Virus record (IMG/VR): IMGVR_UViG_3300028591_000138
Span: 1-64,000 of that record
Strand: one strand, 5' to 3'
From: a virus
Lineage: Duplodnaviria > Caudoviricetes
Length of the DNA stretch: 64,000 nucleotides
Within the stretch, counting starts at the first letter, position 1; each line of letters opens with the position of its first letter. A model generated the notes under the pieces. That model was given only the letters and a program-made list of their open reading frames with translations. It made no database searches and was not told the DNA's origin. Positions 5,497 to 21,231 of this stretch are shown piece by piece. The translations under genes were made by a program, and so were the position numbers.

Positions 5497-7318
5497 CAAA
5501 TGTAGTCAAAAATGTTCAAAAATAACTCGTATAAATATATTATAGTTTAAGACTATTTATATAATGAAACGAAAGTGAGGAGTCGTTTCAAAATAACAAT
5601 AAAGATATACAGAGGTTTTATCCTTGATGGCACTCCTCACATTACTGCCGCAAGTTTAATGCCTCTTTTTTGTTATAATATGGTCATAGACAGCAAATAC
5701 ACAAAAACATTCAAGTCAAACGACTTAACCCGTCAGAAGTATGACGAGCTGCATTCTTTTGCTGTTATGCTGCGTGACCACAAGAACCTTGTTTCCGAAT
5801 ATGTCAACTCTAATCTTGAACACTACCTTGAGTATTCCAAACTTGACTTCTTGAAGGAAATGCGTGCAAGGTACAAGGATGTCATTCCGAGTTCGTTTGA
5901 TGTTCAGTTATACACCCAAGTGTTCAACTGCTATCAGAACAAGTTTGAAGCAATCCGCAAGCATCTTGACTTTGAAGTTGTAAGATTTGTTGGTTTTGAG
6001 TTCTACAAGCGTGACACCAAAAAGAACAAGAAAGGCGACTTGAAAAAGGTTGTGACAGAAAAGTCAAAAACACCTCTAACAATATGTCTAACATACCTTG
6101 CAAGGTACGGAAACGAGAACACGCTTGACTATATCGCAAAGCAGTTGGAGACCTGCGATGAAAAGAAACGTGAGTTTTACAACAACATACTGCGTTGTTG
6201 TGAGAAATTCGGTTTTGAACGTCTGTTTGAACTCGCTTTGCGTAAACGTAACAGAATCATAAAACGGTATTCTGAATATCCGATTGAGTTCAAGTCCTTG
6301 TCATTCGGGGGAAGGTGCAGAAAAACAAGAATCATTGACTACAACAAGAAGTTCGGTTCAGTCATCAACTCCTTTGTTAGTCTGTCTGGAATCGGAAGAA
6401 AGTCGTTTGATATTCCCGTTAAGTTTAACAAGGATTGGCACGGCAGTATGAGAGACTACAGCAAAACAAATCCCGACTATGAGTATGTGCTTACGTTCAA
6501 CGAAAAATACCATCAAGTGAACATCAACTTGTGCAAGGACGGAGAGAGGTATATACCAGAAGCGGGTGACAATGTTGTTGGTATTGACGTTAATTGCAAG
6601 CACAACTTGTTCAGTCTTTCAAACGAGACAACTTATGATTACAATCGACAACTTGTAAACGACTTCTGCAAACTCTCGTTGAAAGTGGACGAACTAAAAA
6701 AGGACAAGAACTACACCATCGGCAAGCGCAAGCAGCAGAAACTTGACACCTTGAAGATGAAGATGCTGAAATCCGAGCAACAACTCATTTCAAGTATGTG
6801 CAAGGAACTGATGATGGATGGTGTGAACCACATCGTTATGGAAGACCTTGACAACGGATTTGGAAGGTGCTACGTCAAAGACAAGGATAATGAGGATATT
6901 AACTACAACAGAAAGGTCAAGTTTCTTGGATTGTCATCCTTGAAGCAGGAGGCTGAACACATTGCAAGAAAATATGGTATTGCATTGTCAACTGTGCAGG
7001 CGAGTTACACAAGCAAAATGTGTCCGATTTGCGGTTGCATTACCGATGAGAACAGACCCAACCAAGAAACCTTTGAATGTGTTGAGTGCGGGCATAAGGA
7101 CAACGCCGACTTCAACGCATCCAAGAACATAATGAACAGAGTGACCGTAACCGTGTTACGTGATTCGCTCTTAAAACGACTTGGCAACGGCGCATACGAA
7201 CCGAGAAAACTGAAAAGGGAGAAGGTGAAGGATGTGCTGCTGTCATTCCGAAGAGACTTGCAGAAAGCAAGTGGTGAATATAGTGAAAATAACAACTTGA
7301 ATACTTTTGACTATGTTT
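5497..7318 (+). mobile_element. Transposase-less TnpB element with imperfect terminal inverted repeats, inserted near the 5' end of a phage gene
   Basis: Left AAATGTAGTCAAAAATGTTCAA versus reverse-complemented right AAACATAGTCAAAAGTATTCAA (18/22). Removing 5497-7318 joins MVGITTEDNKPI (ATG 5461) in frame to SSSETSTVEVFAKE... Confidence 0.65.
5565..5676 (+). ncRNA. Candidate structured 5' leader RNA: two hairpins with complementary loops (kissing loop/pseudoknot)
   Basis: Stem TGAAACGA/TCGTTTCA with loop GTGAGGAG (5575-5582); long stem AGAGGT..CTTG.TGGCA/TGCCG CAAG..GCCTCT with loop CTCCTCAC (5633-5640); starts just after TATTTATA at 5554. Confidence 0.55.
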
Positions 7319-7880: not shown

Positions 7881-9518
7881 ATGAGTAAATTAAGAAAAGT
7901 CCAGTTTTTCCGTAACAGCAGCTTGACTGCCTATGCTAACCACGCTGCTGCTGTAAATGCTGCAGAATTGGCTTGGAAGGCTCAAGGCTTTGCCAATATG
8001 GAAGACGGTGAACTGTTATTGTATCGTTATACCATATCAGGTGAAACGGGTACACCAGCACATACCATTGTAGGTGTTGTAAGAAACGATGGTACCAATA
8101 AGTATTTCGAGGTTCTCGCCAACTACGATATGCTGACCAGCCAGTTCGATAGCTTGGATGTTCCTGGCTACGAGCAAGCCTATATAACTATTGGCAACGG
8201 CACTTCTACATTAACAGTCCAAGGTATCCAGGAAACCGACGGTTTGATTAGTGCTGCCGCCACTCAAGGTCTCACTATCAATATTGACGGTGAATACAAA
8301 GATATTGACAACAAGATTGCCACACAGAGCACTGTAACCAACGCTGTTGAAGCTCTGAATGGTTCTGCAACCATTGCAAGTGAATCTAACGGTGTTGTTA
8401 CTTTGAAGGTTGGTGTTCAGGAAGTGCAAGGTATCATCAGCAATGATGCAAACACTGATATTACCCTTGCTAAGGTTGCCAAGACTGGTGCTGCCGCTGA
8501 CGTAAGCATCGCTGACAGCAATAACTTGTTCACTGCAACTAACGTTGAAGATGCACTGGCTGAGGTTCAGGGTAATGTTCAGACGGTTCAAGGTAATCTT
8601 GAGACTGTTGCCGCAAGCATCAAGGATGGTGCTATTACATGGAATGACGGAACCATTGATGTTAACGTTTTCTCAGCTAACACTAACACTAACTTGACAC
8701 TTCGTCAACATGACTTTGTATATGACAGCAATGAACTTGGTGTAAATGTTCAGACCGCAACTTCCGCAACCAACAAGATTGCTACGATGGCTGATATCGC
8801 CAGCTTGACAGGTGCAATGCACTATAAAGGTGGCGTAACAGAATATCCCACTCCAACTGCAGACACCAAAGCTGGTGACACTTATATTGTAACACAGCGT
8901 TTTGAACACCCTGCACAAAGCGGTAATTGGTATGAAGTTGGTGATATGCTTGTTGCCACGGCGGATGGTACTTCTGCAACCTATACCGTTGTTCAATCGA
9001 ATTTAACCCTCGGTATGGGTACAGGCGAGGTTGCCGCTAACCAGACTGCATTGACGGTTAATCAAATTGTTGTTGCTGGCTCTACTGGTGTTCAGACCAC
9101 TGGCTACACGTTCGACGCTGAATCTACGGCTGGTAATACCACAATCGGTTCAGATTCTACCAACGCACAAGTACCTACTTCGAAGAACGTTTACGACGCT
9201 ATCCAAGATTTGGCTGTTAACAGTGTTTCGGAGACTGTTGGCGTAGGTACCGTTACCGACGGTGCGTCAATCACCGACACTCTAACCGTTGACGGAACTG
9301 CAAGCACACAGACCGTAAATATTGTTGCGACACAAGGTGTTAGTGTGACGCCTGACGCAGGTACGCAGACAATAACATTGGCAGCTAAAGTTGCTGACTA
9401 TGCTCATGTGGGGAATACGACTACAGTAACCACCGAGACTGACGCATATAACCTCTTGAAGGTTGATGCTAGCGGTAACTTGTCGGTATCAGACACCTGG
9501 GACTGCGGAACTTATTGA
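7881..9518 (+). CDS. Fibre/decoration-like structural protein
   Basis: T/A/G/N-rich; N-terminus similar to 11108, LAKVAKTG segment similar to 49958, AMHYKGGV repeat-type motif, C-terminal WDCGTY. Confidence 0.7.
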   Translation: MSKLRKVQFFRNSSLTAYANHAAAVNAAELAWKAQGFANMEDGELLLYRYTISGETGTPAHTIVGVVRNDGTNKYFEVLANYDMLTSQFDSLDVPGYEQAYITIGNGTSTLTVQGIQETDGLISAAATQGLTINIDGEYKDIDNKIATQSTVTNAVEALNGSATIASESNGVVTLKVGVQEVQGIISNDANTDITLAKVAKTGAAADVSIADSNNLFTATNVEDALAEVQGNVQTVQGNLETVAASIKDGAITWNDGTIDVNVFSANTNTNLTLRQHDFVYDSNELGVNVQTATSATNKIATMADIASLTGAMHYKGGVTEYPTPTADTKAGDTYIVTQRFEHPAQSGNWYEVGDMLVATADGTSATYTVVQSNLTLGMGTGEVAANQTALTVNQIVVAGSTGVQTTGYTFDAESTAGNTTIGSDSTNAQVPTSKNVYDAIQDLAVNSVSETVGVGTVTDGASITDTLTVDGTASTQTVNIVATQGVSVTPDAGTQTITLAAKVADYAHVGNTTTVTTETDAYNLLKVDASGNLSVSDTWDCGTY

Positions 9519-10109: not shown

Positions 10110-11060
10110 ATGCCATTGAGACACCTATATCACGTGCGCAGCAATGTTGCGACAGCTCAGGGGTTGGCGAAACTCCCCGATGTTCAGGATATTGGATACG
10201 GCGAAATTGCAATAAACTACGCACAGGGACTTGAAACGATTTCATTGAAAAACTCGAACAATGCAATTGTCCCGTTCACACCGAACACCAATTCATATGT
10301 GGCGAATGTAAATGCTGCGATAACGGAAAACTCACTGGAGAGTATTGTAACTCCAGTCAATGTTTCCAGGTATCAGGATTTCAATATTTCATACTTGGTT
10401 GGCAACACTGACGTTGCTTTCGACCTGTCGGACTTTATCGAATATATTGTTACCACGTTCTATACATCGCCGAGCCTCCATGTTGTACTTCATGTTGCCA
10501 AGGACGACGATGACTACGGCAACAACACCAACTTCATTGTGAACGCGGATTCAATGGCTCTGTTGATGGGTGACGCCAACACCCCGCTGAGCACGGCGTC
10601 CAGGATTATAGGTTTCACCAACTACGGGACATACTTCGTTGCTGGCGACTCTCCCGCAATGAACGGGATTGAAATCGACTGGGATTCGGTCACCAAGGCT
10701 ATAAGTGTCAGGTTCATGTACTCAACGGTTGTTTACGGGCTGGGCGGCACTCCGAACTATGTGTGCTCTGTGATATCGGTTCCGAACGTGACAGTGATGG
10801 ATAGAAGTGTAAATGTGCGCCAGATAATGTGCACAGACCAGATTAGCGTTAACATTAAACTCTATTCTGGGGGTGACCCGTTTGGTCAGACAATGACCTA
10901 CGAATTGCGCAACGCAAACAACCAGTCCATTGCAAACGGTACAATACAAGGTGGCAAGGGGACTATAGACATGGCTCAGTACCAGCCTGGAGAGCATACC
11001 CTATGGATTACCGACGGTAAGGGTGCTCAGAAAGTGATTCGCATAGTTAGAAAAAGTTAA
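10110..11060 (+). CDS. Putative fibre/virion protein
   Basis: N-terminal KLP..I.YGEIAINY...ETISLKN resembles phage fibre attachment domains; Ig-like C-terminus. Confidence 0.6.
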   Translation: MPLRHLYHVRSNVATAQGLAKLPDVQDIGYGEIAINYAQGLETISLKNSNNAIVPFTPNTNSYVANVNAAITENSLESIVTPVNVSRYQDFNISYLVGNTDVAFDLSDFIEYIVTTFYTSPSLHVVLHVAKDDDDYGNNTNFIVNADSMALLMGDANTPLSTASRIIGFTNYGTYFVAGDSPAMNGIEIDWDSVTKAISVRFMYSTVVYGLGGTPNYVCSVISVPNVTVMDRSVNVRQIMCTDQISVNIKLYSGGDPFGQTMTYELRNANNQSIANGTIQGGKGTIDMAQYQPGEHTLWITDGKGAQKVIRIVRKS

Positions 11061-11107: not shown

Positions 11108-13663
11108 ATGCCTTCGAACAATTATTTATACGGACACAAGCACATCCTCCTACGCAACGGCGAGGTCTTCGCGGACAGGGCTGCAGCAGTGCAGGAGATA
11201 AACAGCCTCCACAGCCAGGGGGTTTTCTCGGATGGCGAAATTGTTACCGCCAGATATTTCCACATGGACGGCAATAACACGAAAGTGATTCGTGCGTTGT
11301 TGGCTGAATGTGTAACAGTTGACTATGTGGATTCTACTACAAGCATTGCTGTACATGAGAACAGGATGGAGTTCTTCGACAACACTGATGAAATATTCGA
11401 TAACATTGAGGTTATACAGGGTGTTCAGGGAACCCAAGGTAGCATAGGAGCACAGGGTGCTCAGGGTACGCAGGGTATCAAGGGTGACACTGGAGCACAG
11501 GGTGCTCAGGGTACGCAGGGTATCAAGGGCAACACTGGAGCACAGGGCGCTCAAGGTACGCAAGGTATCAAGGGCGGCACTGGAGCACAGGGTGCTCAGG
11601 GTACGCAAGGTATCAAAGGCGACACTGGAGCACAGGGTAGCGTAGGCGCGCAAGGCGCCAAGGGTACACAAGGTACTGCTGGTACCAATGGAGCCCAAGG
11701 TAGCGTAGGCGCGCAAGGCGCCAAGGGTACGCAAGGTACTGCTGGTACGAACGGTGCACAGGGTAGCGTAGGCGCGCAAGGCGCTACGGGTGCCCAAGGC
11801 GCGAAAGGAGCCCAGGGTAACGTAGGTGCTCAGGGTGCTACGGGTGCCCAAGGTACTGCTGGTACCAATGGAGCACAGGGTAGCGTAGGCGCGCAAGGCG
11901 CCAAGGGTACGCAAGGTACTGCTGGTACGAACGGTGCACAGGGTAGCGTAGGCGCGCAAGGCGCGAAAGGTGCCCAAGGTACTGCTGGTACCAATGGAGC
12001 ACAGGGTAGCGTAGGCGCGCAAGGCGCGAAAGGTGCCCAAGGTACTGCTGGTACCAATGGAGCACAGGGTAGCGTAGGCGCACAAGGCGCGAAAGGTGCC
12101 CAAGGTACTGCTGGTACCAATGGCGCACAGGGTAGCGTAGGCGCACAAGGCGCGAAAGGTGCCCAAGGTACTGCTGGTACCAATGGAGCACAGGGTAGCG
12201 TAGGCGCACAAGGCGCGAAAGGTACACAAGGTACCGCTGGTACGAACGGCGCACAGGGTAGTGTAGGCGCACAAGGCGCCAAGGGTACGCAAGGTACTGC
12301 TGGTACCAATGGAGCACAGGGTAGCGTAGGCGCTCAAGGCGCCAAAGGTGACACTGGCGCACAGGGTGCTCAGGGTACACAAGGTATCAAGGGCGACACT
12401 GGAGCCCAGGGTAGCGTAGGCGCACAAGGCGCCAAAGGTACGCAAGGTACTGCTGGTACCAATGGAGCACAGGGCGCTCAAGGTACGCAGGGTATTATGG
12501 GTGCCAATAATCTTGACCTCGTGTTTCAATTGGGTGTACAAAACAATGAGGTTGTAATTACCAGCGCTAGTCAAACTGTTTCACAGGTGTTGACAGCCAT
12601 TTCTAATGGGCGAAAAGTTACAACAACTATTATAGTCGAAGACAGTTATTATAGTAACTGTGATAGCGTATGGTGTACAGTCAGTGGCGATGAATATTTT
12701 GAAAGTTTTGTTCCTACTTGGGGTGAAATTTTTGAAATCTATGGTGATTTAGTTAATGACTGGGAATTTACCAACAACGAATACAAAACCAAACAAACAT
12801 ATATACCCAGCCCGACGGCTTCTGGAACAGCAACTCAGTTTATAACAACTATTGAGCAAAATGAAAACGGAGAAATTTATGCTACAAAAAGTAACGTTAA
12901 TGTTGTAGACAGAAAAGTTGAACAAACAGGGACAAAACCTCTAGATATAGCCCTTCCAGTAATATTTCAATTTCCAGACCCTGGGACTAAGACTGATGTT
13001 GTTGCAATCGATATAGAGTATGGTTCAAGCCGATTTAGTTATAACCCGAATGCGGGTGTTTTAAGTGCACCTTATTTCAAGGGTGACGGTCGTTTTTTAG
13101 CCAATATTCCTACGGGTTCACATACGCACGGAAACATTCAAAACAGCGGAACGCTACAAACCAACGATGTGACAATAGCCACAGGTGACAAGTTGGTTAT
13201 AACAGATTCCTCCGACAGCGATAAGATTGCAAGGTCATCATTATCATTTAATACAGTGCACCAGGACAAGTTTCTTAGACAAGACGGTACATGGCAAACA
13301 ATAAGAATACCGCAAACAACGTTTAAGTTTGACACACTAACAAACAATCAAACGGCTGTAACTTTTGCCGACACTCCTTGTTACTATGATGTAGCAGTAA
13401 CTGGAGCAACACAAACATTTAATATAAGCATTCCAGCAGCAAACGAATATACCAACTATTTATTGGTAAAAAACACAGGCAGCGCTGAATGTACAATAGC
13501 TTTGGCTAAAGCGAGTGGTATGGGGTGGACTAAATTTGTATTACCGTCAAACACAATAACTGTTGCAAGTGGGAAGGCTATTGAAATATCGTTTGTTTCA
13601 GATTCAACAGGTGCTGTTCTATATATCACAAACTCAGCAGAATTAACAATTCAAACATTATAA
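11108..13663 (+). CDS. Collagen-like tail fibre protein
   Basis: About 120 uninterrupted G-X-Y triplets; HTHGNI and KFLRQDGTW motifs typical of phage fibres. Confidence 0.85.
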   Translation: MPSNNYLYGHKHILLRNGEVFADRAAAVQEINSLHSQGVFSDGEIVTARYFHMDGNNTKVIRALLAECVTVDYVDSTTSIAVHENRMEFFDNTDEIFDNIEVIQGVQGTQGSIGAQGAQGTQGIKGDTGAQGAQGTQGIKGNTGAQGAQGTQGIKGGTGAQGAQGTQGIKGDTGAQGSVGAQGAKGTQGTAGTNGAQGSVGAQGAKGTQGTAGTNGAQGSVGAQGATGAQGAKGAQGNVGAQGATGAQGTAGTNGAQGSVGAQGAKGTQGTAGTNGAQGSVGAQGAKGAQGTAGTNGAQGSVGAQGAKGAQGTAGTNGAQGSVGAQGAKGAQGTAGTNGAQGSVGAQGAKGAQGTAGTNGAQGSVGAQGAKGTQGTAGTNGAQGSVGAQGAKGTQGTAGTNGAQGSVGAQGAKGDTGAQGAQGTQGIKGDTGAQGSVGAQGAKGTQGTAGTNGAQGAQGTQGIMGANNLDLVFQLGVQNNEVVITSASQTVSQVLTAISNGRKVTTTIIVEDSYYSNCDSVWCTVSGDEYFESFVPTWGEIFEIYGDLVNDWEFTNNEYKTKQTYIPSPTASGTATQFITTIEQNENGEIYATKSNVNVVDRKVEQTGTKPLDIALPVIFQFPDPGTKTDVVAIDIEYGSSRFSYNPNAGVLSAPYFKGDGRFLANIPTGSHTHGNIQNSGTLQTNDVTIATGDKLVITDSSDSDKIARSSLSFNTVHQDKFLRQDGTWQTIRIPQTTFKFDTLTNNQTAVTFADTPCYYDVAVTGATQTFNISIPAANEYTNYLLVKNTGSAECTIALAKASGMGWTKFVLPSNTITVASGKAIEISFVSDSTGAVLYITNSAELTIQTL
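11417..12505 (+). repeat. Collagen tandem repeats, 63-bp unit (GTAGTNGAQGSVGAQGAKG[AT]Q, about 11 copies) plus 45-bp GAQGAQGTQGIKGDT units
   Basis: Near-identical nucleotide repeats directly visible. Confidence 0.95.
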
Positions 13664-13665
13664 TA

Positions 13666-14178
13666 ATGACTTATTATGTAGTAAATAACAGAAAAATTGT
13701 AGGGTTTGCTTTGCCAATCAATTTGGCGATGAATGTTGGTTTTGTCCCTCTTACCGAGGAGCAAACTGCGTTCTATGAGGAGCACCCAACAGCAAGTGTC
13801 GGAGAGGTGTTGAAGGGTGAATTGATTCAAACGTACACACCGCCAGAAGAATCTATATTAAGCCATGCTGAAAGTGTTGTATCCGACCTAAAAGCAGCAT
13901 GTTATGGGAGTGTTACTATTTCATCGCTAGAGTATTCGGTTGCTGTTGCTTGTGTAAATGGCACGTCGTTGCTTTTTACTGGTGACAGATACTATTCGGT
14001 TATTGAAGCCAAAAATATCATCAAACAGTTTATGAATGAGAGTAACAGAGCACTTACCATATACAACACATACAAAACACAGATAGAGTCGGCAAAAACA
14101 AAGGAAGAAATTAATAATTTATATTCACAAGCAATGGAGGCGTTAAATGGTGAGGACAATTCCAATCAAACGAAATAG
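13666..14178 (+). CDS. Putative tail fibre assembly chaperone
   Basis: Directly follows the fibre gene; C-terminal IESAKTKEEIN resembles DUF4376/Tfa-type tails. Confidence 0.55.
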   Translation: MTYYVVNNRKIVGFALPINLAMNVGFVPLTEEQTAFYEEHPTASVGEVLKGELIQTYTPPEESILSHAESVVSDLKAACYGSVTISSLEYSVAVACVNGTSLLFTGDRYYSVIEAKNIIKQFMNESNRALTIYNTYKTQIESAKTKEEINNLYSQAMEALNGEDNSNQTK

Positions 14179-14347
14179 AACAAACATATTAACAATATTA
14201 TCGTTAATAATACTTCTGTATGTGAGCTTAATGACTACTTGGTATACAAGTACGGGCGAACGCGTCACAAATTATGACGATATTATTACAGACCAAGCCT
14301 TATTATGGACTACTGATACTACATGGATAGGAGGATGGAATGAGTAA
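14147..14347 (+). CDS. Small hydrophobic protein
   Basis: 66 aa with one TM-like segment; fills the gap and overlaps both neighbours. Confidence 0.4.
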   Translation: MVRTIPIKRNRTNILTILSLIILLYVSLMTTWYTSTGERVTNYDDIITDQALLWTTDTTWIGGWNE

Positions 14348-15143
14348 AAGGCACACTGACATAAAAATATTTGATAAAAATCGCTTTACTGTTAATAGTA
14401 ACGGTGGTTGTGTTGCATTTGCCCCAGGGAATTTGCAATACCGCGCCTCAGATGGCAAATGGAGGTTCGCTGAACACCAATATGATGTGTTACGTAGTGG
14501 CGGTGGCAATGCAACCACAATGCCAGCAAGACAAACACAGACAGCATGGATAGACATCTTTAATTATGGTGCTACTGGCTATAATAATGGTCAAGCAGCA
14601 TACTTGCCATATACTATAGATACTACTTCAACACATTTTTATGTTGGCAATACAGCAGGAACATCGGCAGACTTTTCTTATCCTTACAATCAACAAGAAG
14701 GCACAGCATTTAGAAACCTTACTAACAACGAATACGAGTATGTCTTATTTACTAGAACAGGTGAAAGATTCGCAAAAGCTACTGTAGCAGGCGTAGAAGG
14801 TCTAATACTAATACCGAATGATACAATTAGTGGCCTAAATTCTGTAAATGTGGCGAGTGCTTCATTTGCAGCAAATATAATATCTGCTATAGATTGGTCT
14901 AACTATGAAAATGAAGGCTTCATTTTCTTGCCAGCAGGTGGCTATAGAAGAGGCACATCAGTAGACCAAATTGCAAGCGACCTATTGGCTGGATTTTATC
15001 AATGCTCAACTGATAGAGCAAGTTCAGGACAAAGCGAACGTGACTACTTTATACAGTTTAAGTGTGGGTCACAGAATATTGTTGATATGGGCTATTCAGC
15101 AAAACGCGATGGCAAATCAATACGATTAATACTAGATTTATGA
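14340..15143 (+). CDS. MSKRH-array protein 1: Bacteroidales-type C-type-lectin-like domain
   Basis: VAFAPGNLQY...WRFAEHQYD...WIDIF...GLILIP...FLPAGGYR...SIRL pattern. Confidence 0.75.
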   Translation: MSKRHTDIKIFDKNRFTVNSNGGCVAFAPGNLQYRASDGKWRFAEHQYDVLRSGGGNATTMPARQTQTAWIDIFNYGATGYNNGQAAYLPYTIDTTSTHFYVGNTAGTSADFSYPYNQQEGTAFRNLTNNEYEYVLFTRTGERFAKATVAGVEGLILIPNDTISGLNSVNVASASFAANIISAIDWSNYENEGFIFLPAGGYRRGTSVDQIASDLLAGFYQCSTDRASSGQSERDYFIQFKCGSQNIVDMGYSAKRDGKSIRLILDL

Positions 15144-15895
15144 GCAAACGTCATACAATATTAGGAGGCTCACAGCCAATACCACCAGTACCGTCAAGTG
15201 TATTGTGGTCAGAAGACTTAGTTTTCTATGCACCATTGAATCAGGGTGAACTGTTTGACTACATCAGCGGTGAAGTAGGCACAACATCAGAATATGCTTG
15301 GGCAACATGGGATGCCAACGAGCAAATGTACCAGCTTGGTTACGAACATCCAACACTGACATTCACAGGATGTTCAGCGTTGTTGTTCAACAGTCAAGCT
15401 TGCATGTCAAACTTAAATAGAGGTGTGCTTAGCAAAGCATTTACCATCATGATTCGCTATAAAGATGTAGCCTTTGAAGGAAATTCTTGGCGTATGGCTC
15501 GAGCTTTTACAATGAACAGGCATTCAGAAGTGTATTATAACAACACTTACAACAGTGGTCAAGGCATTAATATGTGGATTGACGGCTATCGTCAAGGCAT
15601 GACACAAACAACTATGCCAAGTGCAGCTATGACATTTAGAACTGTTATTTCGACATACACAGCAACAAACTGGACAACTTATGTCAACGCGACACAGAAA
15701 GGTTCATACAGTATTGGCTCCGAACAATGGTATATGCCGACATCACTGGCTTTGTGTGATAAGAGTGGCATTCCTAACCAACAGTCATCACAGTATAATA
15801 CAAAGAAGCATATCATAAACATTAAAGATGTCCGTGTGTATGCAAAGACATGCACGGCAGCTGAGGTGATGCAATTAACAAACAATGTGATATGA
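15140..15895 (+). CDS. MSKRH-array protein 2: LamG/ConA-like domain
   Basis: LVFYAPL...; C-terminal IKDVRVYAKTCTAAEV is typical of LamG-like folds. Confidence 0.7.
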   Translation: MSKRHTILGGSQPIPPVPSSVLWSEDLVFYAPLNQGELFDYISGEVGTTSEYAWATWDANEQMYQLGYEHPTLTFTGCSALLFNSQACMSNLNRGVLSKAFTIMIRYKDVAFEGNSWRMARAFTMNRHSEVYYNNTYNSGQGINMWIDGYRQGMTQTTMPSAAMTFRTVISTYTATNWTTYVNATQKGSYSIGSEQWYMPTSLALCDKSGIPNQQSSQYNTKKHIINIKDVRVYAKTCTAAEVMQLTNNVI

Positions 15896-16728
15896 GCAAG
15901 AGACACGCAATAGATGGTTTGTTGAACGGACATCATTATAGATGTTTGACAAAAGACGAAATGTATTATCTTGTTTGGCAGCGTCCTACATCCACAGTAA
16001 ACGGAGTACAAAATGCACGATGGTGTAATGCTTATGTCAATTCTGTTCGTGGATTTTTATTGCTGCCCGACAACTTCTCACTGCCAAACGGTATCTCGAT
16101 GACAAATATCAATGTAAACAAAATGTCATCGCCCACAAACAATTATACTATATCTCAATGGGAGACTTTGCAAGATGCTGGGTGTAGATTTTTTGCAGCC
16201 GCTGGTGTTGTTTATCCCACATCAAACCATCAATATACAATGGGTAACGAAATGGTATGTGTATGGCTGTCTACAATAAGTCAATCTCCGAGTGTGGATG
16301 TATTCATGTGTCGACCTAATAGGTTTGAAATATTAGGTTATGGTGACAGAATGAATAGATTACCTGTAAGACTTTTTGACACTGACGGCTTTGGGTTCTC
16401 AATATCACCAACGCAACAAGTTGATATAACTCGCGGGCACTTACAGTATTATCCTGCTGATAATCTTTGGCGCATTGCTCCAAATGCATATGACTACATA
16501 GGGAGTACAAATAGGAATTACATAGATGCCCAGTATGCTGGGTGGTTGGATTTGTTTAGCTATGCAAGTTCAGGATGGTCTGGTGGAATTATAAATTATG
16601 CTCCTGCAGGCGTTTGGTCAAGTCAAAATTCGGACTACTATATTGGAGGAGATGCAAGTCAACCGATGCTTGACAATTATGCAAGGTGTGACTGGGGTAT
16701 CTTCAATAACGAAATAATATCTCAATAG
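15892..16728 (+). CDS. MSKRH-array protein 3: circularly permuted paralogue of protein 1
   Basis: Same motifs as 14340 with the halves swapped. Confidence 0.75.
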   Translation: MSKRHAIDGLLNGHHYRCLTKDEMYYLVWQRPTSTVNGVQNARWCNAYVNSVRGFLLLPDNFSLPNGISMTNINVNKMSSPTNNYTISQWETLQDAGCRFFAAAGVVYPTSNHQYTMGNEMVCVWLSTISQSPSVDVFMCRPNRFEILGYGDRMNRLPVRLFDTDGFGFSISPTQQVDITRGHLQYYPADNLWRIAPNAYDYIGSTNRNYIDAQYAGWLDLFSYASSGWSGGIINYAPAGVWSSQNSDYYIGGDASQPMLDNYARCDWGIFNNEIISQ

Positions 16729-16732
16729 CATT

Positions 16733-17440
16733 ATGAGTAAGAGACACTATAATATAGAACAAGGCGGTTGGAACCCACTGACAGACCCGACTTTAATATT
16801 CTATGCTCCAATGAGTAACGGAGACCTCACAGACCACATAAGCGGTAACAGTCTTAATATGGTCAATCCGAGCAGGGTAACGTGGGAGAACAGTGTCGGA
16901 ATGTACAAGGTAATAAAGGAGACACAAGCCAATGAGATGTATTGGAATGTCAATCTGAGATATGACGCAATGACCAATCCCTATGGAATACAGGCAGTTA
17001 ATACGCAGGACTATACTCTCTATTGCTATTGTCAGAGGTTGAGTGAGACTTATTATTCATATCCGCCATTTTTTATACTAGGCTCATACGTTAGTAGTAC
17101 TTCATGGAACCCGTCATTGCAATCTAATAGATTCGACGAAACAGGTTCTCGAGAGTTCCTGCTAGGTCGATGTTGTGTAAAGCAAGGCGGCTATTACGAC
17201 ACCTACAGTTATTATAACAACGAGTTGTGTTTAATAGAGAATGAAGCAATAAGCAACACATCGCTACAGTATTGTAGTAATTGGGTAAATGACAACTTTG
17301 TAAGAGTTGCTGTAAATCCCAAGCGTGGCAGCCAAGACCCGAATATAAACATATACATAAGTAATTTAATGATATTTAGTCGAGCATTGACTGATGACGA
17401 GATAATATTTTTATCAAATAACTTTACAGATTGGCTATGA
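16733..17440 (+). CDS. MSKRH-array protein 4: LamG/ConA-like, paralogue of protein 2
   Basis: LIFYAPMSNGDLTDHISG versus LVFYAPLNQGELFDYISG; C-terminal ISNLMIFSRALTDDEI. Confidence 0.7.
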   Translation: MSKRHYNIEQGGWNPLTDPTLIFYAPMSNGDLTDHISGNSLNMVNPSRVTWENSVGMYKVIKETQANEMYWNVNLRYDAMTNPYGIQAVNTQDYTLYCYCQRLSETYYSYPPFFILGSYVSSTSWNPSLQSNRFDETGSREFLLGRCCVKQGGYYDTYSYYNNELCLIENEAISNTSLQYCSNWVNDNFVRVAVNPKRGSQDPNINIYISNLMIFSRALTDDEIIFLSNNFTDWL

Positions 17441-18054
17441 GTAGGAGACATGGAGACATACGTAAGCTAATACCATCAGATTATAGTGTTGTCGATTGCA
17501 TTATATCTTCTGGACAGCAATGGATTGATACAGGCATAGCTTGCACAGAATCTACAGGTGGCATGGTTGACATGAATTTACTGTCGAATGCCAGCAAGCC
17601 ATATATGCTAGCATGCTACAAAAATGGTGTGCGTGGCTATCTTATTGGCTGCGAAACACCGAACTATGCATATGGCTATGGCAACGTTAGATTTGTCAAT
17701 ACTAGTATTAACTTTCCGACTAACGAACGACATGAATTTAAGACAATGTTTGCTAATGGTCATCAATATGCAGCAATCGATGACCATGTCATTTATCAGA
17801 CAGCATTATCAGGCAGTTTTACTACTGATAATATAGCATTATCTTTGTTTGCTTTGCAAAATTCTTATGCAGGCAGTATGCAACAGTATTGCAAAGCTAA
17901 ACTATATGCTGCAACATTATGGCAAAATGACATTGCTGTGAGAGATTTTGTGCCAGTCATTAGACTGCAAGATAATAAGCCAGGCCTATATGATATCATA
18001 GGACAGGCTTTCTATGTCAATCAAGGAACTGACAACGACTTTAGTTATGAGTAA
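17437..18054 (+). CDS. MSRRH-array protein 5: phage beta-sandwich domain
   Basis: SSGQQWIDTG...VRDFVPV...PGLYDII...FYVNQGT pattern common in phage tail-associated proteins. Confidence 0.7.
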   Translation: MSRRHGDIRKLIPSDYSVVDCIISSGQQWIDTGIACTESTGGMVDMNLLSNASKPYMLACYKNGVRGYLIGCETPNYAYGYGNVRFVNTSINFPTNERHEFKTMFANGHQYAAIDDHVIYQTALSGSFTTDNIALSLFALQNSYAGSMQQYCKAKLYAATLWQNDIAVRDFVPVIRLQDNKPGLYDIIGQAFYVNQGTDNDFSYE

Positions 18055-18191
18055 ACGACACGCTGACATTATCAATGAGGAACCATATTAGGTCGGACAC
18101 ATCAAGTAATACGCAAGCAACTAATTGTTGGGTCAAAAATATCAAGATTTTTAACACCGAATTAACTGAAAGACAAGTTTTAGCTCTATGA
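18047..18191 (+). pseudogene. Internally deleted sixth MSKRH cassette
   Basis: MSKRHADIINEEPY* followed out of frame by ...NCWVKNIKIFNTELTERQVLAL*, a LamG-type C-terminus. Confidence 0.7.
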
Positions 18192-18271: not shown

Positions 18272-19870
18272 ATGTACAACAATTTTGCGAAATACTGTCT
18301 GACACACGGAGCATACATCAATTGGCTTGAAGTGTCGGGCGAGCAATGCAGTCATCTTGGACTGTGCAACCCGTCCGTGTTCATCGACGGCGACGACATT
18401 AGGGTAATCCTTAGGAATGTCAACTATATGCTGTGGTCGTCATTGAACGAATACAAATTCACAGGCCCGTATGGTCCGTTATATTATGTCACGCCAGACA
18501 ACGACCAACATTTACGAACCAGAAACTTTCTTGGTGTTATAAAAGACGACAGCGCAGAGTATAAGCTCATTGACACTTCGGCGTGTGATTGGGAGGCTCA
18601 GTGGGAGTTTGTCGGGCACGAGGACATGAGGCTGGTTCGCTGGAACGGCAAGCTGTACGGCACAGGAGTTCAGCGCGACTGGAACACAACGGGCATCGGA
18701 AGAATGCATCTGTCCGAAATAGACCCTGAGACTGGCAAGGAGCTCAGCAGAGTCAGACTGGCTGCACCTGGCGCGAACGATGGGTATTGTGAGAAAAACT
18801 GGATGCCAGTCCTCGACATGCCGTACCACTATGTAAGGTGGTGCAACCCGCTGGAGCTTGTGAAAGTCGACCCCGAGACGGGTGTCGGTGAGACGGTTAA
18901 GGTTGTTGAATACCCGCAGGATACTGTTGGGTTAAGTATTGACGGTATGGCTATGCGCGGCAGCTCGCAGGTTGTAACATGGGGTGACTACAGGATTGCG
19001 ATTGTACATTTCTGCCATCTGGACATGAACGAGAAGAAAGAGAAAACCAACCCCATATACACAGAGCGGTTTATTGTCTGGGACAAGGACTGGAATATTG
19101 TGAACGCCACGGCGCCGTTTAAATTCGCCAACTTCAACATAGAGTTCACGAACGGTCTTGCTTTCAAGGACGGCATATTCTATATTCCGTTCGCTCTTCA
19201 GGATAACATGGCTTTCATGCTCCGTGTGAACGAGGATGTTGTACGTAAGTTTATTTTCGACAAGGAATTGTCATATGGAAATTATAACCTGACCAACAAT
19301 ATTTATCTGGAATTTTTCAATAATTCAACCGACAGTGCCACGCTTGTGCGTATGGGCGACCAGTATTTCGCGAAAGGCTTGCTGGCTGCAAGCTGTGTCT
19401 GCTACGAGCGTGCGTGCGACTACAACACGTTTGCCAACAGGTATGATTTGTACAACGCCGTGTTCATGACTGGACAATGCATTGCCAAGCTTGGGCGTCG
19501 CGATGCGATGGAAAAGCACATATGGCTTCGATTGATTGATATGTGTCCCGAACGTTCTGAAGGCTACATGATGATGGCTCGCTACTATCTGTGGCGGAAT
19601 TGTCGTAGCGAGGCTTATGCTTTCGCGAAAATGGCATACGAGAAAAACAACTTCAGGCAGATTGGGGCTTATTCTGGTATTGAGAATGAAAACGACGCGT
19701 TTGTTGAATATATGGTAGCCAAATACTGGACGGAACAGTATATGGAATGTGAAAAGGACATCGCTGAGTTTACCAAGACCCATAAATGCACACCTAATCA
19801 GTTTGTCAAGCTTCATAACATTCAGAACATGATTAACACCAATAAACCCAACAGAAAGAGGATTCTCTAA
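18272..19870 (+). CDS. Five-bladed beta-propeller glycosidase-like (GH130-like) + TPR protein
   Basis: CNPSV, GHEDMRLVRWNG, CEKNWMP and IEFTNGL motifs; TPR-like C-terminus (CPERSEGY). Confidence 0.65.
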   Translation: MYNNFAKYCLTHGAYINWLEVSGEQCSHLGLCNPSVFIDGDDIRVILRNVNYMLWSSLNEYKFTGPYGPLYYVTPDNDQHLRTRNFLGVIKDDSAEYKLIDTSACDWEAQWEFVGHEDMRLVRWNGKLYGTGVQRDWNTTGIGRMHLSEIDPETGKELSRVRLAAPGANDGYCEKNWMPVLDMPYHYVRWCNPLELVKVDPETGVGETVKVVEYPQDTVGLSIDGMAMRGSSQVVTWGDYRIAIVHFCHLDMNEKKEKTNPIYTERFIVWDKDWNIVNATAPFKFANFNIEFTNGLAFKDGIFYIPFALQDNMAFMLRVNEDVVRKFIFDKELSYGNYNLTNNIYLEFFNNSTDSATLVRMGDQYFAKGLLAASCVCYERACDYNTFANRYDLYNAVFMTGQCIAKLGRRDAMEKHIWLRLIDMCPERSEGYMMMARYYLWRNCRSEAYAFAKMAYEKNNFRQIGAYSGIENENDAFVEYMVAKYWTEQYMECEKDIAEFTKTHKCTPNQFVKLHNIQNMINTNKPNRKRIL

Positions 19871-21231
19871 TGGTTACCAACAATTTATTGAAATACGCTT
19901 TGGAAAACGGGGGACGGCACTATGTGATAGACATTCCCAGAAAATTGCGGCGCGGGCATATTCCAGCCAATCCAACCTGTTCGGTTTTCAACAACAAAAT
20001 TGTTGTTAACACACGTATGCTGACATATGTTAAATGTATCCTGGTTCAGGATTATCTAACAACACGGTTCAACGTAAACCCAGGTTATTTCTATCACCCC
20101 AACGGATACAACAGCAGGAATGTAATCGGGGAATTGGGGGAGGAAGGTTTAACTGGCGCTAGAACATTGGGCGAACGTCAGGGCGTATTAAACACATACT
20201 TTAACGGTCTGGAAGATGTCAGACTGGTTTCCTGGAACGGAAAACTATACGCCTACGGCACCCGTCTGGATGTTGCCGAGGGCAGGGTGGCAATTTGTTT
20301 ACATGAACTTGATGAAGATTATCAGGTTGTTAACGAGGTTATTTTGGACAGTCCTACAAACAGTCCCATGGAAAAGAACTGGGCAGCGGTTGAAGACCGT
20401 CCGTTTACTTTCGTTTATTATACCAATCCACAAACAGTCATCGAAGTTAATCCAACCGACGGGTCAGTCAAGATATTAAGTGAACACAAGGAGTTTTCAA
20501 CAGCCCCTCACGGTTTGCGCGGTAATACCAACGTGGTGAGACTGGATGGTGAGCGTTATATTGAAATGGTGCATGAAACGAAATTCACCGACACTAGCGA
20601 TGGAACGCAGGATATTTCATACAATATGGCTTTTGTTGTTTATGACAACGATTTGAACATTATACATTCGACGAAATTCTTTAGTTTCGGACAATTTCTT
20701 TCCCAGTTTGGATGCGGGCTTTGCATTCTCGGCGACGATGCATATATTGCATACAGTGAGATGGATGCACAGGCGAATATTCTCAAACTGCCGAAAGAGA
20801 AACTCATTGAATATATCTATAGTGACATTGTAGACGAACCAGAGCCTTTGGATGCAGACCGTTACAAAAATATGATTGAAACTATGCTGGAAGCGGGATA
20901 TATTGACCAAGCCTATCCATTCATCAACTATTGTCTCGACAACGGTGTATATGACGGCGAAGAAAAATACGAGAAACTTATATTGACACTAGGCTTTATT
21001 TGCCAGGAAATATACAGAATACCAGACGGTAACTACAATACATTGGAACAGACTCTGGATAAGATAATGTCGGAAGGGTTTAAAGTGAAAGAATGTCTTT
21101 ATTTGAAATCAATTATATACCGTGCTCGCGGTGACATTGGTCAATCTAAAATGTACCGTCAGATGGCTGACGAAACCGAGGGAGTGTGTTCGCTTGGGTT
21201 TTTAAGTTTAATTAATCCGCACTATTTGTGA
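19870..21231 (+). CDS. Paralogous GH130-like propeller + helical repeat protein
   Basis: ANPT, GLEDVRLVSWNG, MEKNWAA motifs; translationally coupled to the previous gene. Confidence 0.65.
   Translation: MVTNNLLKYALENGGRHYVIDIPRKLRRGHIPANPTCSVFNNKIVVNTRMLTYVKCILVQDYLTTRFNVNPGYFYHPNGYNSRNVIGELGEEGLTGARTLGERQGVLNTYFNGLEDVRLVSWNGKLYAYGTRLDVAEGRVAICLHELDEDYQVVNEVILDSPTNSPMEKNWAAVEDRPFTFVYYTNPQTVIEVNPTDGSVKILSEHKEFSTAPHGLRGNTNVVRLDGERYIEMVHETKFTDTSDGTQDISYNMAFVVYDNDLNIIHSTKFFSFGQFLSQFGCGLCILGDDAYIAYSEMDAQANILKLPKEKLIEYIYSDIVDEPEPLDADRYKNMIETMLEAGYIDQAYPFINYCLDNGVYDGEEKYEKLILTLGFICQEIYRIPDGNYNTLEQTLDKIMSEGFKVKECLYLKSIIYRARGDIGQSKMYRQMADETEGVCSLGFLSLINPHYL

Follow-up and report, generated by a model that had tools for sequence, protein, structure and literature searches.

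A short basic N-terminal tag shared by unrelated lectin-like proteins in a phage tail-fibre module, with a possible role in docking exchangeable fibre heads

The first 64,000 nt (hereafter the window) of the 100,721-bp IMG/VR virus record IMGVR_UViG_3300028591_000138 contain, downstream of a collagen-like tail-fibre gene, an array of five lectin-like genes (A to E) and a decayed sixth copy, all of which begin with the peptide MS(K/R)RH. Selection on this N-terminal tag is at the peptide level, unrelated domains can carry it, and it is restricted to a fibre-linked gene module, which was also found in 13 further loci. The tag may serve as a portable docking tag for exchangeable fibre heads, and this reading is given about an even chance of being correct. 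The completeness of the record was estimated by CheckV at 29%, which at a length of 100,721 bp indicates a fragment of a jumbo phage; a terminase, a portal, and several collagen-like and other fibre genes are present in it.

To locate all copies of the tag, the whole 100,721-bp record was searched in six frames with the pattern M[ST][KR][KR]H. Matches were found only at 14340, 15140, 15892, 16733, 17437 and 18047, which are the six starts listed in a preliminary description of the window. The six copies lie within 3.7 kb, compared with 0.07 expected from the composition of the whole record, and five of the six starts open reading frames (ORFs) of 205–278 amino acids (aa). The same description had the starts mostly overlapping the previous stop, and five of them do so: those at 15140, 15892 and 17437 form an ATGA overlap with the preceding stop codon, those at 14340 and 18047 overlap the preceding gene by 8 nt (ATGAGTAA), and the start at 16733 follows the preceding gene after a 4-nt gap. 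The genes from 11108 to 18054 are all on the same strand and are tightly packed or overlapping. The array had been placed directly downstream of the fibre gene and a chaperone-like gene; it does belong to the same block, although a 66-aa membrane-protein gene (14147–14347) intervenes. A promoter and terminator scan, which used sigma-70 rules ill-suited to this host group, was uninformative.

The codons of the motif differ among the copies, as had been reported: Ser is encoded by AGT or AGC, Lys by AAA or AAG, Arg by AGG, CGT, AGA or CGA, and His by CAC or CAT. In the 12 bases that follow the ATG, six positions are variable; five of these represent all five possible synonymous sites, and the sixth gives a conservative K-to-R change. 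Since the variation within the motif is almost entirely synonymous, the peptide is under selection. The DNA similarity among the copies begins exactly at the ATG and fades after ∼23 nt. The earlier proposal that selection acts on the peptide rather than on the DNA was thus supported in its first part, while its second part has to be qualified, given that an RNA-level constraint may add to the selection on the peptide (see the AGR lean below). Two other roles for the motif were considered and dropped, namely a Tat or Sec signal, because no hydrophobic segment follows the basic residues, and an ATCUN-type metal site, because the His is at the wrong position.

Based on sequence and model comparisons, the five array genes, all on the + strand, group by sequence into three families and by predicted fold into two classes, and a carbohydrate- or surface-binding role is plausible for all of them; of the “at least three folds” claimed previously, the families stand and only two fold classes are predicted. 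Gene A (14340–15143) encodes a protein of 267 aa (MSKRHT) with a DUF8237/Lcl_C/Fib_succ_major-like domain pair in the order X-Y, and gene C (15892–16728) encodes a protein of 278 aa (MSKRHA) with the same two domains in the order Y-X. As shown by BLASTP, residues 8–106 of A correspond to residues 159–255 of C, and residues 121–263 of A to residues 13–161 of C. The domain order is therefore swapped, and the tag heads a different domain in each protein. The two adjacent paralogues are related by a naturally occurring domain swap or circular permutation. The relatives of A outside phages, as detected by phmmer, are Bacteroidales-type lipoproteins or secreted proteins (E 1e-30 to 1e-12). The homologues of A gave only weak matches to PF09603/PF07603 (Fib_succ_major/Lcl_C), PF26707 is on record for some of them, and the Atlas structural neighbours of A are DUF8237 and Bacteroidota surface-protein domains.

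Gene B (15140–15895; 251 aa, MSKRHT) encodes a LamG/ConA-like jelly roll with a free N-terminal tail, and gene D (16733–17440; 235 aa, MSKRHY) encodes a LamG-like paralogue of B, with 35% identity to B across the first 66 residues. The PF13385 scores of B (22.2 bits) and D (13.4 bits) are both under the gathering cut-off of 27.6. The AlphaFold2 model of B, with a predicted local distance difference test score (pLDDT) of 83.8, was identified by Foldseek against the PDB and BFVD as a ConA-like lectin jelly roll (E ∼1e-8, template modelling score ∼0.5); the PDB matches are lectin-like jelly-roll subdomains of various proteins, with which the fold alone is shared. In this model, residues 1–4 have a pLDDT below 50 and are followed by a Pro-rich linker and then by the jelly roll, so that the tag is a free tail in the model. 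Gene E (17437–18054) encodes a protein of 205 aa (MSRRHG) with a single domain of ∼190 aa of the LPxGYxxLEYIESxGTQYIDTG type, and its Atlas structural neighbours are viral and ConA-like. The E-type domain was found in 8771 proteins at E ≤ 0.001, most of them with 3–10 tandem repeats each. This very common domain (longer consensus LPxGYxxLEYIESxGTQYIDTG...FYTNAGTGEFxY; proteins P0055–P0203) has no curated family in the Pfam library used. Trimeric tailspike or depolymerase heads were not matched, as B is a single jelly roll, A is surface-protein-like and E is a single 190-aa domain. Sequence searches of the PDB with A, B, E, the C-terminal half of the fibre and the proteins encoded at 10110 and 7881 returned chance-level rows only.

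The sixth start, which had been counted as an array gene, belongs to a decayed cassette (18047–18191, + strand) that reads MSKRHADIINEEPY and then a stop. The tagged frame ends after 14 codons, and another frame, open to 18191, encodes a LamG-type C-terminal tail (..WVKNIKIFNTELTERQVLAL); taken together, these features identify a deleted, frameshifted remnant, and its presence indicates that the array turns over. Stop-codon recoding at this stub was considered and dropped, because TAG, TAA and TGA are all present in it.

The genes upstream of the array are likewise on the + strand. The fibre gene (11108–13663) encodes a collagen-like tail fibre of 851 aa, which matches Pfam Collagen (E 3.6e-56) and tail-fibre PHROGs. 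Its C-terminal domain, comprising the last ∼70–110 residues (about 13424–13651), matches the fibre ends of four other loci (L009, L010, L012 and L013). The collagen-like region of the fibre (11411–12610) shows a regular higher-order repeat of 63 nt (21 residues) in about a dozen copies. The next gene (13666–14178) encodes a helper-like protein of 170 aa, the one previously termed chaperone-like, and it and its homologues are always encoded between the fibre and the array. These homologues show 25–44% identity in six metagenome or IMG/VR loci, and a genome scan gave 10 further matches with 26–43% identity over the best matched segment. The AlphaFold2 model of the 13666 protein (pLDDT 84.5) consists of a small N-terminal beta/alpha part and a three-helix bundle, for which fold searches returned generic helical bundles only and no specific PDB match. 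A long homologue in L015 is the only helper-like form with a DUF4376 match, which is weak (E 0.0027). The 66-aa protein encoded at 14147–14347 is a single-pass membrane protein with a Trp-rich C-terminus (..LLWTTDTTWIGGWNE), and its gene overlaps both neighbours.

When the helper-like gene 13666 was used as a probe, 13 further informative loci were found, in two metagenome contigs (L009 and L010), three IMG/VR contigs (L012, L013 and L014) and eight contigs of metagenome-assembled genomes (MAGs). All carried fibre-linked arrays with related tags; a search of relatives for such arrays had been suggested earlier. Seven of the eight MAG loci are labelled Bacteroidales, and most are from the rumen or fore-stomach of yak, sheep and goat; the hosts are probably Bacteroidales. 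Common to the loci are a fibre whose last ∼70–120 residues are conserved (mostly with ..DGAFITSRxDL.., the window being more divergent), a helper-like protein of 160–175 aa beside the array, and one to six lectin-like genes that start with an M(S/P)?[KR]R[EHQD]-like tag. The tag variants include MRREH, MKREH, MPKREH, MRRQH, MSRRH and MSRREY, so that the motif proposed as MS(K/R)RH, which is correct for the window, has to be broadened across lineages to an M(x)[KR]R[EH]-like form. Across the 14 loci, 34 genuine tagged array genes of at least 150 aa were counted, together with three loose KK-type matches outside the array zones; a 35th ORF in an array zone (L014 5632, MKRG...) was rejected as a spanin-like false positive. 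The tag heads the X domain (in A), the Y domain (in C), LamG (in B and D), the E-type domain and a further family (L014 1471 and L012 5453), and in the other loci LamG, E-type and other families are again tagged. One array gene of L026 exceeds the Pfam LamG_3 threshold with 61.9 bits and matches PHROGs named baseplate wedge or virion structural protein. Only the fibre C-terminal domain and the helper-like protein are constant in all modules, and the array genes are highly variable, which is the pattern expected of a conserved socket with exchangeable plugs.

The modules end tail-fibre blocks, which, like the PHROG matches of the L026 gene, is consistent with a link to virions. In L013 and L022 they are preceded by genes which, from their N-terminal sequences, we take to be baseplate J/I-like, and downstream of the array in L014 and L027 comes a GH108 endolysin gene. 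The ORF list of L022 continues with ordinary-looking bacterial genes, so that this locus may be a prophage. In most loci the module also includes a single-pass membrane protein of 56–77 aa with a Trp-rich C-terminus, for example at L012 4597–4800, L014 4724–4909, L023 11421–11603 and L026 10187–10357. The copies of L012 and L014 match each other in BLAST, and what links the 14147 protein and the copies in seven MAG loci is only their position, their size and a Trp-rich motif that they have in common at the C-terminus. This motif reads W-x-[SAT]-D-[ST]-x-W-x-G-G-W in most modules. As to its role, the small membrane protein may be a holin, may act in exclusion, or may be an assembly partner and part of the system. 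Downstream of the array in five MAG loci lies a gene for a protein of ∼780–830 aa (MIRxFANGxxLxLYR..; L023 12389–14722, L025 7977–10367, L026 12946–15282, L029 12828–15155 and L031 2456–4960), which gave no family match and could be another structural partner.

As shown by comparison of homologues, the tag is kept where the remainder of the N-terminus is not. All nine orthologues of B start with MSKRH, down to 40% identity; positions 1–5 are 100% identical among them, and positions 8–10 are 24–49% identical. Among the 11 phage orthologues of A, seven start with MSKRH and three with MSRREY, MARREY or MRREY, and the remaining one (P0021, MRVQN) is tagless. Retention of the motif by homologues, which the preliminary description had predicted, was therefore observed in 9/9 orthologues of B and, with the variants included, in 10/11 phage orthologues of A. 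By contrast, the bacterial homologues of A carry a signal peptide or a lipobox where the tag would sit, and 145 of the 149 best matches inspected for the E-type domain, mostly multi-repeat proteins, have no [KR]R[EH]-type motif anywhere. A 1002-aa phage adhesin (L007 1393–4401, also in L008) consists of BspA-type leucine-rich repeats, CHB_HEX_C Ig-like domains and a C-terminal LamG domain related to B. This fused LamG form is untagged, and its locus in L007 is without the helper-like gene, the fibre C-terminal domain and the membrane protein. The tag is thus acquired by unrelated binding domains when they are separate genes in the fibre module, and it is absent when they are exported by bacteria or fused. 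Two proteins (P0010 and P0011), each from a Logan contig of 2,522 bp, are an A orthologue with 94% identity and a B-type protein with 41% identity to the genes of the window; they may share one contig, and in that case they would point to cassette mosaicism.

The module was not matched at the DNA or protein level among the GenBank phages, and no cultured phage was found to carry it. Scans of IMG/VR with B or a B alignment gave no match, and the scan with an A alignment gave only an unrelated temperate phage carrying a lipoprotein moron. No description of this module or tag was found in the literature search.

According to the proposed mechanism, the proteins of the array would be lectin-like heads at the distal end of the tail-fibre apparatus that can replace one another. 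Each head would start with a short, flexible, basic tag (MS[KR]RH in the window and of the M(x)[KR]R[EH] type among related phages), which would act as a portable address label and dock the head non-covalently on a conserved element of the same gene module. Two candidates for the socket are the fibre's conserved C-terminal domain and the 170-aa product of the neighbouring gene; the preliminary description had also listed the 14147 protein as a possible partner. Under this scheme, a variety of glycan-binding heads could be mounted on a single fibre scaffold, which would not need to change for cassettes to be gained, lost or exchanged. A wider proposal, which we consider doubtful though conceivable, would join the tag with the fibre C-terminal domain, the 170-aa protein and the Trp-rich membrane protein into an undescribed “plug standard”, in use among very different Bacteroidales phages from P2-like myoviruses to the jumbo phage. 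Lectin domains from host surface proteins or other phages would then be mountable through the three-residue [KR]R[EH] core, and cassettes would be tradable between unrelated virion types.

Several known systems resemble this arrangement in part. In T2/T6/S16-type phages, the gp38 adhesin caps the gp37 long tail fibre. Like the array proteins, gp38 is a separately encoded variable adhesin whose gene lies just downstream of the fibre gene, and it is mounted on a conserved fibre tip; unlike them, it occurs singly in the T-even phages, compared with one to six tag-sharing heads here, and there is no sequence or family match between the two. A closer parallel is provided by branched receptor-binding protein systems, in which N-terminal docking peptides of 7–11 residues on secondary receptor-binding proteins are established (PMC6872550, Latka et al. 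2019). Docking through conserved peptides is described for the hepta- and undecapeptides of K1-5/K1E/SP6 and for the Klebsiella KP32, KP34, Menlow and PhiK64-1 groups (PMC6872550), and a further paper states that such docking has been validated experimentally (PMC13352976). As in those systems, several adjacent receptor-binding-type genes occur in the tail module (five and a remnant here, with arrays in 13 other loci), and the secondary proteins share a very short, group-specific N-terminal peptide before unrelated domains; up to 11 such proteins are encoded by one jumbo phage. The differences are that the heads here are small (200–280 aa) lectin-type beta-sandwiches rather than trimeric beta-helix depolymerases, that the tag is basic whereas the Klebsiella peptides are without positive charge (PMC6872550), that no T4gp10-like branching domain or adaptor was found by sequence, and that the hosts are rumen Bacteroidales, with docking being a prediction here.

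In the “rope-and-bead” fibres of the podophages GP4, VP1 and A1002, separately encoded small beta-sandwich subunits bind an extended docking polypeptide non-covalently, and the A1002 fibre has two different bead proteins (PMC13730344). The small beta-sandwich proteins from separate genes are common to both cases. In those fibres, however, the docking segments are on the rope and the beads dimerise round it, whereas here it is the heads that bear the short peptide, and a rope with repeats was not found. The retroelement-diversified C-type-lectin adhesins of phages, tentaclins among them (PMC10743442), are likewise lectin-type proteins, for which binding to glycans of bacteria or hosts has been proposed; the diversity here comes instead from a multi-gene array. 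The absence of a diversity-generating retroelement or invertase, as stated in the preliminary description, was borne out within the sequence covered: neither RVT_1 (reverse transcriptase) nor Resolvase was found in the 100-kb record, which represents ∼29% of the genome, and between 11 and 18.4 kb there were no long repeats or template/variable pair apart from the collagen repeats. The docking-peptide concept is accordingly known, and what is new is a basic tag with a two-to-four-residue core, small lectin-type heads, Bacteroidales phages, and a distinct fibre end with a helper-like protein.

Several points weigh against a docking role, which, like the presence of the heads in the virion and the identity of the socket, is what we infer from the genes. 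The conserved core is two to four residues ([KR]R[EH]x), which is very short for a specific interface, and MSRRH, MRRQ and MRRH variants occur in one array (L026), which would call for a tolerant socket or a more generic role of the tag. Sequence-level searches (Pfam, PHROGs and PDB) of the proteins encoded at 7881, 10110, 11108 and 13666 detected no T4gp10-like branching domain or known adaptor. The small membrane protein is encoded inside several arrays (e.g., L023 and L026), which is unexplained by a pure virion-docking model. Finally, 33 of the 38 tag starts read ATGA, and AGR makes up 27 of the 37 codons at the invariant Arg, compared with ∼41% of the codons for Arg in nine other window genes, so that an RNA-level constraint may contribute.

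Other explanations of the same data were considered. The tag could be a handle for an assembly factor, namely the 170-aa helper-like protein, which would fold, hold or deliver the lectin-like proteins, with their attachment elsewhere (on the baseplate or the collagen shaft) through the globular domains. The helper-like gene always directly adjoins the array, and the 13666 model, with its small N-terminal domain and helical bundle, has a general shape found among fibre assembly proteins such as the Tfa-type chaperones; the weak DUF4376 match of the long L015 form points in the same direction. Given that monomeric jelly rolls rarely require dedicated chaperones, and that the 13666 protein showed no similarity to a known chaperone in Pfam, PHROGs, PDB sequence or fold searches, this explanation is considered unlikely. 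A comparably low probability is assigned to a role outside the virion, in which the tagged proteins and the membrane protein would act on the infected cell or its surroundings (receptor masking, superinfection exclusion, post-lysis glycan binding or a lysis-linked role), and the basic tag would mediate association with the membrane or a partner. Consistent with such a role, the 56–77-aa membrane protein occurs in most modules, within the array in L023 and L026, and in L014 its gene is immediately upstream of the genes for the GH108 endolysin and a spanin-like lipoprotein; moreover, exclusion genes often adjoin receptor-binding genes (T5 llp and cor). The tagged proteins, however, have neither a signal peptide nor a hydrophobic segment, the same domains are fused to large phage structural proteins, and the fibre gene and all the others form one closely coupled block on a single strand.

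The conserved start could also be mainly an RNA or DNA signal, such as a purine-rich aid to re-initiation after ATGA in the Shine-Dalgarno-poor Bacteroidales, the operator of a translational regulator, or a micro-homology for cassette exchange. Besides the frequency of ATGA starts and the over-representation of AGR at the invariant Arg, this explanation would account for the purine-rich codons 2–4 (AGA AGA GAA, AGT AAA AGG), for the stops that ATGAGTAA has in both other frames, and for DNA similarity that starts exactly at the ATG. We nevertheless regard it as very unlikely, given that the invariant Arg is encoded by CGN in 10 of 37 cases (across the 38 tags, 27 are AGR and 10 CGN), that within a lineage only synonymous changes are seen at the His/Glu position and those after it, and that other coupled genes of the operon (for the helper-like protein, the membrane protein and the ∼780-aa protein) are without the motif. 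In addition, the [KR]R[EH] core is retained at the five “MP..” starts without ATGA, in one case in the form I-R-E-H (MPIREH). Finally, the motif could be functionless and persist from a common ancestor or from recombination that recurred at gene starts, as might be suggested by the adjacency of the genes and the paralogy of some of them (A/C and B/D). As it is kept on unrelated domains in 14 loci of very different phages, with the adjacent residues drifting freely, this last explanation is highly improbable.

Two further features of the window were observed near these genes. Immediately after the array, at 18272–21231, are two adjacent paralogues (532 and 453 aa) with 27% identity over ∼330 residues, which gave no Pfam, PHROG or NCBIfam match. 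Between the fibre genes, a 581-aa ORF at 5575–7320 matches transposase PHROGs.

The module shows the capture by phages of a Bacteroidota cell-surface domain, with the tag in place of the signal peptide. Should the tag prove to be a docking label, it would be among the shortest known, and it would be common to unrelated binding domains and to phages with very different particles, in poorly studied rumen Bacteroidales hosts. It would also explain how multi-specific adhesion sets can be formed without retroelements or invertases, and it would allow accessory receptor-binding proteins to be recognised in metagenomes by a simple sequence rule.

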